NCBI GenBank assembly: GCA_963696045.1
Contig: CAVOIR010000007.1
Span: 20,665 to 84,664 of the forward strand
Direction: 5' to 3'
Origin: an uncultured Chloroflexia bacterium
GTDB lineage: Bacteria; Chloroflexota; Limnocylindria; Limnocylindrales; CSP1-4
DNA: 64,000 nt
The first letter of the stretch is position 1. The number at the start of each line of letters is the position of its first letter. Position numbers and translations under genes: made by a program. Of the stretch, positions 27,480 through 32,814 are shown piece after piece. The notes under the pieces are model-generated. The model made no database searches, was not told the origin of the DNA, and saw nothing but the letters and a program-made list of their open reading frames with translations.

Positions 27480-30208
<2,729 letters not shown>

Positions 30209-30209
30209 T

Positions 30210-31627
30210 ATGGAAGGATCTGTCAAAGGGGTAGATGGCGGGGCATGGCCGGGGTCAGGTCCTGGCGATGGTGGTCACTCTGATATGCGCGGGTCGGCGA
30301 AGCCGTTGCCGCATGACAGTGAGCCGGTCACCGAGGTGCCTCGGACTAGGGGCGCGAGTCGGGATCGCATAGTTCAGGTCGAGGGTTCTCGATGGCGCTG
30401 TCCCGCTCGGCCATGCCCCGCCACGTCATCGGTCAGGCGGCCCTCGGTGCCACGTGCTGGCCAGCCGCCCAGACGAAGCCGGCCAGCTCGCGGGCCACGG
30501 CGGTGACGGTCTTGTTCACCCCGATACGACCGACGAGGGCACGGTAGCGGTGATGGAGCCGCGCCTGGGCCCGGCGGTCGATGGCCACGATCTCGGGCGG
30601 CACCAGGCGTTGCCGCGCCCGAAGACCGGAGCTGACGTTGGGTCGGTAGCGGGCGTTGTGGGCGGCCTGGCCGAGGACGTGGCGGATGAGCCGGTCGCCG
30701 GTCTTGGTGATCCGACCGCGATGACGGACGGGGCCGCTGGACCACTCGGACGGCACGAGCCCGACGTAGGCCATGAACTGGCGCGCGGTGGCGAAGCGGC
30801 GCAGGTCACCCGCCTCGGCGGCGATGGTCACCGCCGACAGGAAGCCGATGCCCCGGATGGCCTGGAGCGCGGCGAGGAGCTCGGCCTGGGGTCCCTCGCC
30901 CGCCGTCCGCATGAGCGCGCCCTCGAGACGCTTGACCCGCTCGGCCGCGGCTCGGGCGACCGCGCGATAGTCCTCGAACACGACCTCGTCGGCCGCCTGG
31001 GCGAAGACCACCTTGCCCAGCCAGGTCTCGTGGGCCCGGCTCCACGCACGCACGCCCGCTGGTGGGTGGACCGCCCGGCGCAGCAGGAACTTCGAGAGGC
31101 GGTGCCGGGCCCGCAGCTGGTCGGCCTTGGCGTCGTCCCGGGCCCGCACCAGGTCGCGCAGCGCCTCGCCGGCCTCGTCGGGCACCCAGACCGCGACGAG
31201 GTCGCCGCTGCGCAGGAGCCGCGCGAGCTTGGCAGCGTCGCGCTGGTCGGTCTTGATCCGGTCGCCCGGTCGGACGGGGATGAGCGACGGTGCCACCACG
31301 ATGCACGCGATGCCCATCGCGCGTCACCTGGCGATGGAGGGCATAGCCGGTCGGTCCGGCCTCGTAGGCGACGACGAGGCGATCAGCGCCGTCCCCGAGG
31401 CGCTGCAGCAGCCGTCGGACCGCCGACGCGTCGTTGGCGATCTGGCCATGATCCTCCGGCTCGCCGTACTCCCCGGCGACCGCGACGGCGATCGATGCCT
31501 TGTGGACGTCCAGACCGACGAACCGGGTACGCTCAGACATGGACCGGCCTCCCGTATGTGGCTCTGTGCGGGCAAGCTCAGGCTACCCGCGCAATCCACG
31601 ATGTTGCGCGAGTGCCGGTCCTTCCAT
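30210..31627 (-). mobile_element. IS110-family insertion sequence (1418 bp) bounded by 11-bp imperfect inverted repeats
   Basis: ATGGAAGGATC at 30210..30220; the complement of 31617..31627 reads ATGGAAGGACC (10/11). A DEDD transposase gene lies inside. It sits 1 nt after the clpB TGA and 11 nt before the next gene's GTG, and GC drops at the left end. Confidence 0.75.
30433..31540 (-). CDS. IS110-family (DEDD) transposase/recombinase; one frame shift near 31320
   Basis: N-terminus in ORF 30806..31540(-): MSERTRFVGLDVHKASIAVAV...LVVAYEAGPTGYAL. The rest is in ORF 30433..31317(-): VAPSLIPVRPGDRIKTDQRDAAKLARLL...LQAIRGIGFLSAVTIAAEAGDLRRFATARQFMAYVGLVPSEWSSGP...ITKTGDRLIRHVLGQAA. Confidence 0.88.
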
Positions 31628-31638
31628 GTTGACTAGGC

Positions 31639-32814
31639 GTGGTCCCCAGGGTCGGTGATGGCATCCCGGAAAGCCAGGCGGCGCTCGATCCTCGCTGGAC
31701 TGACAGCCAGCCCGCGCTGGTGGCAGCCATCCGCGGCGAGATCCTGGCCAGCCCGAAGCAGCGCATCACGTTCGCGCGCTTCATGGAACGCGCGCTGACC
31801 GAGCCCGGTCTGGGCTATTACGCGACGAGCGAGCTGCGACCCACCCGGGAGGGCGACTTCCTCACGGCGCCCGAGCTGCACCCCTTCTTCGGGCGCTGTC
31901 TCGGCCGCTTCCTGACCGCGGTCTGGCGGGCCGCCGGGGCACCGGAGCGCTACCTGGTCCGCGAGCACGGCGCGGGGCGGGGCACGCTGCGCGACACTGT
32001 CATGGCCGGCCTGGCGGCGGATGCGTCGGGCCTGTCCGGGGCCATCGAGTGGCATTCGCTCGACCTGCCCGGGCACGGCGGCGGAGCCGAGGAAGCCGCG
32101 CACGTCATCCTCGCCAACGAGTTCCTCGATGCCCTGCCCGTCCACCGGCTCGTCCAGGCGGGAGTCCTCCGCGAGGCCTACGTCGAGTGGCGGGACGGGT
32201 GGTTCGGCGAGACGCTCGATGACCCGTCGAGCGCCGACCTCGCCGGTCACCTGGCCGCCGACGGAGTCGTGCTGCGCGAGGGCCAGCGGGCCGATGTCTG
32301 CCTGGCCGCGCCTCGCTGGCTGGTCGCGGCTGGGTCGTCCCTCGCTCCCGGCGGACTCGTCCTCGTCATCGACTACGGCCACGAGGCGACCGAGCTGTAC
32401 GGACCCAGGCGGCTGGCCGGGTCGCTGCTGACGTATCGGGAGCATCGCGTCGCCGAGGACCCCTTCACGGCCGTGGGCCACACCGACCTCACGAGCCACG
32501 TCGACGTCACCGCCCTGCAGCGCGCGGCGCGGTCCGCCGGCCTGAAGGCCCTCGGAGACACGTCCCAGGGCCGCTTCCTGGCCGACCTCGGCCTGGGCCA
32601 GCTCCTCTCGGACCTCGGCCGTGACCCGGGGACCGAGCCGGAGGCCTATCTCCTTGCCCGCAGCGCCGTGGCGCGCCTGCTTGACCCGCGTCACCTGGGC
32701 GCCTTCCGCGTCCTCCTCTGGGGCCGACCGCGAGCCGAGGACGCAGCGGCGGAGGTCCCGGGTCTCGAGGCCACGCTCCCGGGTTTCGAGGCCGGGCCCG
32801 CGGCGAGGTCGTAG
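31639..32814 (+). CDS. SAM-dependent methyltransferase, DUF185 / MidA (NDUFAF7-like) family
   Basis: ITFARFMERALTEPGLGYYA...GDFLTAPELHPFFGRCLGRFL...LVREHGAGRGTLRDTV...VILANEFLDALPVHRL...LVIDYGHEATELYGP...GHTDLTSHVDVTAL. Confidence 0.8.
   Translation: MVPRVGDGIPESQAALDPRWTDSQPALVAAIRGEILASPKQRITFARFMERALTEPGLGYYATSELRPTREGDFLTAPELHPFFGRCLGRFLTAVWRAAGAPERYLVREHGAGRGTLRDTVMAGLAADASGLSGAIEWHSLDLPGHGGGAEEAAHVILANEFLDALPVHRLVQAGVLREAYVEWRDGWFGETLDDPSSADLAGHLAADGVVLREGQRADVCLAAPRWLVAAGSSLAPGGLVLVIDYGHEATELYGPRRLAGSLLTYREHRVAEDPFTAVGHTDLTSHVDVTALQRAARSAGLKALGDTSQGRFLADLGLGQLLSDLGRDPGTEPEAYLLARSAVARLLDPRHLGAFRVLLWGRPRAEDAAAEVPGLEATLPGFEAGPAARS

Follow-up and report, generated by a model that had tools for sequence, protein, structure and literature searches.

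Introduction

RNA-guided recombinases of insertion sequences (ISs) of the IS110/IS1111 type are under development as programmable tools for DNA insertion, and the bridge-RNA mechanism that they use has been known since 2024. The subject of this study is an IS located at the end of the clpB gene in a 64,000-nt stretch of DNA (hereafter the window; contig CAVOIR010000007.1 of assembly GCA_963696045.1) from an uncultured bacterium of the Chloroflexota (class Limnocylindria). The element is a clear new example of this mechanism, and it extends the system to uncultured Chloroflexota with a high guanine-plus-cytosine (GC) content. It is very probably an ISSso6-like IS110-family element of IS1111 architecture, inserted by conservative, site-specific recombination guided by RNA at CCTGAA-CT-AGG, the clpB end.

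Among named elements, ISSso6 has the closest transposase (42% amino acid identity over 98% of the length), and the two proteins share the motifs YEAGP.GY...VVAPSL.P..PG.R.KTD.RDA and GLVPSE.S(S/T)G. ISfinder assigns ISSso6 to the IS110 family, IS1111 group, and Durrant et al. (2024, PMC11208160) give it as 'RE / IS1111', with a predicted bridge RNA in the right end, in one of their supplementary tables. The nearest named relative is thus an element listed with an RNA in its right end and not a member of a family without guide RNAs, an outcome that an initial annotation, made from the sequence alone, had kept in view. The likeness is one of transposase and of listing, and the hosts differ, as ISSso6 comes from the Enterobacteriaceae. 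In the same study, bridge RNAs were predicted in 93% of IS1111 elements, and donor loops were reported for IS1111-group RNAs (PMC11208160).

The IS1111-group elements ISEc11, ISPa11, ISKpn4 and ISPst6, whose seekRNAs were described by Siddiquee et al. (2024, PMC11187229), resemble the present element in several respects. Their inverted repeats are subterminal, the transposase gene is followed downstream by a long non-coding region, they cause no target duplication, and in their RNAs the top-strand target match stands 5' of the bottom-strand one, the two overlapping where the insertion occurs. The seekRNAs sufficient for IS1111 transposition measure 82–96 nt and contain target matches only (PMC11187229). 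In contrast, the model proposed here includes a second, donor-matching arm, and the RNA in question is predicted from sequence.

IS621 and ISCro4 (PMC11208160, PMC11208158; PDB 8wt6, 9t56) are more remote. Their recombinases share with the present transposase a DEDD/RuvC domain and a Tnp domain with the catalytic Ser, and the alignment of their solved structures with it is confined to the C-terminal domain (E about 1e-8 to 1e-9). A two-loop RNA, with one target and one donor loop and a 2-nt core in each guide, is another common feature. In IS621, once strands have been exchanged, the partner DNA is matched by two additional bases of the loop (PMC11208158), and a pair of bases resembling this handshake guide occurs here. 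In IS621 and ISCro4, unlike the element under study, the RNA is encoded in the left end, 5' of the gene, and the inverted repeats measure only 2–3 bp. Moreover, the order of guide strands is reversed in IS621, in which the 5' side pairs with the bottom strand (PMC11208160).

Boundaries of the Element and Its Integration Site

The element spans positions 30207..31632 of the window (1426 bp) and carries its transposase gene on the minus strand; 31632 is accordingly the left end (LE) and 30207 the right end (RE). Its termini were fixed by an alignment with two loci from same-genus genomes (L006 and L007, 79–81% identity), which match the window from 30205 to about 31636, by 12 full copies and by one empty-site contig. 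Read in the transposase sense, the 12 full copies, which come from genomes and metagenomes, have the form LF..CTAG / TCAACATGGAAGGACC ... CTTGACAnnTCCTTCCATATC / AG followed by a variable flank. Identical termini (CTAG|TCAAC...CATATC|AG) therefore occur in at least 12 copies with unrelated flanks, and AG follows the RE and precedes the LE in all copies compared. This dinucleotide, CT on the plus strand, is the crossover core, and it is present at both junctions (30205..30206 on the RE side and 31633..31634 on the LE side).

An 11-nt inverted repeat, ATGGAAGGATC, lies at 30210..30220 and 31617..31627, with 10 of 11 positions identical. These repeats had been recognized in the initial annotation and are kept in all other copies. 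They had also been taken as the borders of a 1418-bp element; the element is real, but the repeats are set in from the termini by 3 nt (RE) and 5 nt (LE), which makes them subterminal, like the 7–17 bp repeats of the IS1111 group. As previously described, the non-coding ends are asymmetric, although their lengths are 226 nt (RE) and 92 nt (LE) and not 223 and 87 nt. The longer one lies downstream of the transposase gene, and it is indeed GC-poorer than the gene (0.65 versus 0.735).

The state of the site before insertion can be read from related DNA. Empty sites, whose presence in related genomes had been suggested as a check, were found: they read CTGAACTAGG (CTGAA-CT-AGG), and clpB of same-genus genomes without the element ends in CTGAACTAG. 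A 589-nt soil metagenome contig (run X4), about 98% identical to the window and containing three ambiguous letters, joins position 30203 directly to 31632 as CTGAACTAGGCG, skipping 1428 nt. The left target half is the 3' end of clpB, GCCTGAACT (30197..30206, plus strand), and the right half is CT-AGGCG.. (31633..31641, plus strand). There is no target duplication, as had been reported, apart from the 2-nt CT core present at both junctions.

The clpB gene occupies 27662..30208, and the element does not lie 1 nt behind its stop codon, as first thought, but splits the TAG stop itself after the T. The present stop, TGA at 30206-30208 (CTGAAC TGA), consists of the target T and the first two bases of the element, GA. 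In effect, the terminus of the element restores the stop of the gene that it interrupts, and the length of ClpB is unchanged.

Structure and Conservation of the Predicted Guide RNA

The initial annotation had proposed that the 3' flank, in the minus sense, encodes an IS1111-style bridge RNA. This view is borne out by conservation, by structural covariation and by covariation of loops with flanks. Compared with shuffled sequence, the right end read in the minus sense gives the better fold (z = -3.6). In the RNAalifold consensus of 14 close copies, a long outer stem surrounds two arms, each with one internal loop, and compensatory changes are found at nine pairs already among these copies. The core of the RNA, about 190 nt in length, lies at 30236..30423 on the minus strand, with an outer stem of 30408-30422 paired with 30237-30251. 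A covariance model (R1) built from the 14 copies scores 212.7 bits there. A hairpin previously drawn within 30331..30344 is not supported; comparison shows this segment paired with 30380..30392, which closes the target-binding arm.

In 36 loci, R1 locates this RNA immediately 3' of the transposase gene, so that the covariance support whose absence would have spoken against a guide RNA was found. These loci include contigs of Alphaproteobacteria, Planctomycetota, Armatimonadota and Dormibacterota, in which transposase identity is only about 44–57%. In an alignment of the 36 homologues, fitted to the model and therefore favouring the structure in its pair counts, 93% of cells are paired, versus 35–42% in controls with slid partners; double (compensatory) changes occur in 40 of the 54 base pairs, and all nine helices are supported. 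Between the window and a related copy in a different species (L040), the non-coding end is 91% identical and the transposase gene 87%.

R1 also detects the same RNA architecture in L025, L028, L029, L030, L032 and L035, which belong to Consotaella, Roseibium, Sinorhizobium and Ensifer. IS110-family genes precede these matches, and the hosts are cultured Alphaproteobacteria that would lend themselves to experiments.

The Target-Binding Loop

In the internal loop of the first arm, two segments match opposite target strands; they overlap at the core and vary in step with the target. The 5' side, ACCUGAACUA (30370..30379, minus strand), is the reverse complement of T-AG-TTCAGG, the DNA adjoining the right end, that is, the last codons of clpB. 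The earlier expectation that a loop would pair with the clpB terminus is thus supported: the segment CCUGAACUA is the exact reverse complement of the clpB-side flank. The 5' side of this loop is also the sole hypervariable stretch of the RNA, and it varies with the flank of each copy.

This relationship was quantified over six variable positions in the 14 copies whose right flank is known. Loops match their own flank at 4.57 of 6 positions and the flanks of other copies at 1.76 of 6, and a value as high did not occur in any of 100,000 permutations (p<1e-5). Nine copies show a perfect match between 5' guide and flank over 7–8 nt. Among distant relatives, the match is 8/8 in L033, L052, L054 and L062 and 7/8 in L061 and L069, so the rule holds down to about 44% amino acid identity. 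Overall, matches at this one loop position recur across more than 25 independent insertions whose flanks differ.

The 3' side, CCCCUAGUC (..CUAGUC; 30344..30352, minus strand), is nearly constant and covaries with the left flank. Its CUAG corresponds to the left flank plus the core. Where the flank differs, the loop differs in the same way: the loop has AUAG against a flank of ATAG in L042, GUAG against GTAG in L054, CAAG against CAAG in L023 and UCAG against TCAG in L020. The last two bases of the segment, UC, equal the first two bases of the LE, a handshake-like feature, and they follow the LE start among copies (UC with TC, AC with AC). In its guide order, the match to the top strand lying 5' of that to the bottom strand, the RNA agrees with the IS1111 seekRNAs.

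The series of guides and flanks leads to a predicted target rule, namely a fixed (C)TAG and 5–6 programmable bases. By this rule, the wild-type guide would specify CCTGAACTAGG; the 5' loop version found in L026, GCCAACUA, would correspond to the site CTAGTTGGC. The clade can be seen as a natural series of reprogrammed guides, with at least nine different 5' guides among elements that are 79–93% identical, every guide matching the flank of its own copy.

The Candidate Donor-Binding Loop

The initial annotation had also expected loops that pair with the donor ends, and this expectation finds support on one side of the second-arm loop. Its 3' side, CAUAUCAG (30280..30287, minus strand), is identical to the RE terminus CATATC followed by the AG core, and the same 8-mer stands at 30205-30212. 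It covaries with the RE terminus: L033 has AUCCUAG in the loop and ..CATCCT|AG at the terminus, and L048 has AUGUC and ..CCATGTC. On the 5' side, ..CACUGUCA.. (30314..30322, minus strand), possible pairing with the circle junction C-AG-T is limited to ACUG, a match of 4 nt that shows no covariation and can be regarded as weak.

Proposed Mechanism

On the model that best fits these observations, the right end would encode a two-arm RNA of about 190 nt, which would be produced and bound by the transposase. The first-arm loop would hold two guides that pair with opposite target strands and overlap at the 2-nt core. Its variable 5' guide would read the core and 5–6 nt on the RE side, while the nearly fixed 3' guide would read CUAG together with two bases that match the incoming LE. 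In the second-arm loop, CAUAUCAG would recognize the RE terminus of the element itself plus the core.

By analogy with IS621 and ISEc11, the element may be excised as a circle that joins RE-AG-LE (..CCATATC-AG-TCAACATGG..). A promoter of the form TTGACA-17-CAACAT, serving the transposase gene, would arise only at such a junction. The presumed -35 box, TTGACA, lies at 30221..30226 on the minus strand; the spacing between TTGAC(A/G) and the RE terminus is constant in every relative, even at an amino acid identity of about 44%. CAACAT is located in the LE (31626-31631) and would come to lie 17 nt downstream of TTGACA in a circle. The basis of the analogy is the junction promoters of IS110/IS1111 circles (PMC11187229). 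The complex of RNA and transposase would then bridge the circle junction to a new target, consisting of (C)TAG and 5–6 guide-specified bases, and strands would be exchanged at the 2-nt core.

The Transposase Gene

The transposase gene occupies 30433..31540 on the minus strand (1108 nt). The domains DEDD_Tnp_IS110 (PF01548) and Transposase_20 (PF02371) were identified in it with Pfam, in agreement with the initial annotation; the gene is not a single open frame, as had been assumed, but one domain set split over two overlapping open reading frames (30806..31540 and 30433..31317). The cause is one extra base at 31323, GA[C]GCGCG, a +1 frameshift apparent in the alignment with L039, L040 and L041. 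The native parts of the protein are an N-terminal one (about 31321..31540) and a C-terminal one (30433..31317), which are 93% and 98% identical to the intact 368-amino-acid homologue P0003. Residues D11, E60, D98, D101 and S268-G269 are retained in the alignment to P0003, and GLVPSEWSSG, an instance of the G..P....SG motif conserved in the IS110 family, is present. Intact homologues have 368 amino acids and are named IS110 family transposase in some sources.

Alternative Explanations

Several observations speak against the classification and mechanism set out above. A scan of 29900..31900 against Rfam (E up to 10) returned microRNA noise only and no matching family, and a scan for a promoter-like site in the linear element found none. 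Coverage by metatranscriptome contigs (run X17) extends to portions of clpB and of the transposase gene at its 5' end and not to the non-coding end, a gap that is no evidence on RNA expression either way. In nine lineages, LE sequences were compared with the second loop on its 5' side, and neither a match nor covariation emerged beyond ACUG-CAGT. To these can be added the bias of the structural alignment, the frameshift in this copy as assembled, and a search for a second copy in the source genome that found none in the 57%-complete assembly. Finally, ISSso6 is only about 22% identical to the core IS1111 transposases, ISEc11 and its relatives among them, and the present protein has 368 amino acids versus 330–350 in those (PMC11187229). 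Given this deep branch and this length, the element is filed by IS1111 architecture within an ISSso6-like clade, apart from phylogeny.

Two alternatives concern the right end. One holds that the 3' flank is conserved merely as a set of DNA sites, a 3' untranslated region or a terminator, and that the flank matches are due to chance. The absence of RNA evidence, of an Rfam match and of a promoter in the scans would agree with it. Chance would hardly produce loop–flank matches that recur in more than 25 independent insertions, nor would it explain compensatory changes in all nine helices, and the scan of the linear element found no terminator-like site; this explanation is highly improbable. The other holds that only the first arm guides, in the manner of a short seekRNA, that the second arm is a scaffold or a DNA-level binding site, and that the donor ends are recognized through the subterminal repeats together with the target halves. 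The short seekRNAs sufficient for IS1111 transposition fit this proposal, as do the lack of a convincing donor match on the 5' side of the second loop and the long, invariant inverted repeats. Yet the 8 nt of CAUAUCAG that equal the RE terminus and core change together with it in L033 and L048, the helices of the second arm show compensatory changes, and donor loops have been reported for IS1111-group RNAs (Durrant et al., PMC11208160), so a guide function confined to the first arm seems unlikely.

The third alternative concerns this copy and not its relatives: the frameshift at 31323 would be real, no full-length transposase would be made, and the element would be a fixed, immobile passenger with a purposeless RNA. 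The extra base stands in the assembly, no other copy was found in the incomplete source genome, and a same-site insertion in L040 shows roughly the divergence of its flanks, as an old insertion would. On the other hand, the key residues and the high identity of both transposase parts to P0003 have been preserved, the ends and the RNA are intact, and the extra base is absent from near-identical contigs of two metagenome runs (X2 and X4). The empty allele at 98% identity indicates that the insertion is polymorphic. Furthermore, a same-genus copy that is 88% identical (L031, also G043:C18) has the same extra base, and the closer copy L039 lacks it, a pattern that suggests a systematic assembly error. 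Whether the frameshift is real or an assembly error is roughly an even question, and the dead-relic explanation as a whole falls slightly short of even. As assembled, the element would be mobile only with an intact transposase supplied in trans, unless the extra base is an error.

Degenerate copies exist in this clade. L031 has a second indel besides the shared extra base, L022 and L027 are truncated after about 712 nt, and in L018 the RNA is present without the terminal ~30 nt of the RE.

Distribution and Target-Site Context

Other copies, for which the initial annotation had recommended a search, occur in related genomes and metagenomes, and none was found in the source genome (57% complete). 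The RNA is present in 7 of 49 genus genomes, with one copy each, counts to be read in the light of the tendency of metagenome-bin assemblies to lose repeats. The X4 empty allele, at about 98% identity, means either that the insertion is polymorphic in the population or that the element was precisely excised. In a different species, a related IS (87–91% identical) occupies the identical clpB-stop site (L040:809-2234); identities to the window there are 85% for clpB, 87% for the transposase gene and 77% for MidA. This shared position reflects either an old insertion with occasional precise excision or recurrent targeting of a conserved site.

At 6 of 12 insertion sites, an open frame of at least 100 codons ends at CTAG on the guide-side strand, a proportion that is not decisive in DNA of 70% GC and that hints at a preference of the element for TAG stop codons. 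The tetranucleotide CTAG itself is rare in the window (13 occurrences versus about 172 expected from base composition, or about 13-fold under-represented). Such scarcity may let the fixed half-site steer insertions to TAG stops.

The empty site of one genome (G001; L008, G001:C6), CTGAACTGATATGGCC, shares GATATGG with the terminus and could be taken for an element footprint. This was judged a coincidence: the sequence reads as a TGA stop followed by an ATG start, aligning with the 5' region of MidA in other genomes.

A Lead on Self-Targeting

The DNA that encodes the 5' guide, CCTGAA-CT-AT (30370-30379), copies nine of the ten recognized target bases (CCTGAA-CT-AG), which would allow it to act as a pseudo-target for the recombinase of the element itself. 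A 257-nt contig from run X4, with a depth of about 5 and four ambiguous letters, joins 31575..31631 to the reverse complement of 30176..30373. At this junction (..CCATGTTGA-CT-ATGCGATCC..), the LE terminus is joined at the core to the element's own 5'-guide DNA. One of two events would account for it: insertion of a second copy, in reverse orientation, within the guide gene, or inversion of 30374..31631.

It is possible, though rather doubtful, that the guide DNA serves as a pseudo-target and that self-recombination is a recurrent hazard for ISSso6-like elements. On that proposal, self-recombination would normally be limited by a mismatch that discriminates self from non-self: after CUA the guide has an invariant U, and the target has G at this position. 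The junction of LE and guide, TTCCATGTTGACTATGCGAT (one mismatch), was not found in the 49 genus genomes and the fetched loci, and a literature search on self-targeting by bridge RNA elements returned reviews only and no primary paper. As the evidence is a single low-depth contig, self-recombination is a lead and not a result.

Neighbouring Genes and Annotation

The flanking genes were correctly named in the initial annotation, with clpB to the left of the element and a MidA-like gene (Methyltransf_28) to its right. The latter lies at 31639-32814, with a possible GTG start at 31639. For annotation, clpB can be treated as intact, the transposase gene as frameshifted or affected by an assembly error, and the MidA-like gene as split off from the heat-shock operon. 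Without the insertion, this MidA/NDUFAF7-like methyltransferase gene would begin 2 nt past the clpB stop. A 1.4 kb IS on the opposite strand now stands between this gene and the operon, and its expression may have changed as a result.

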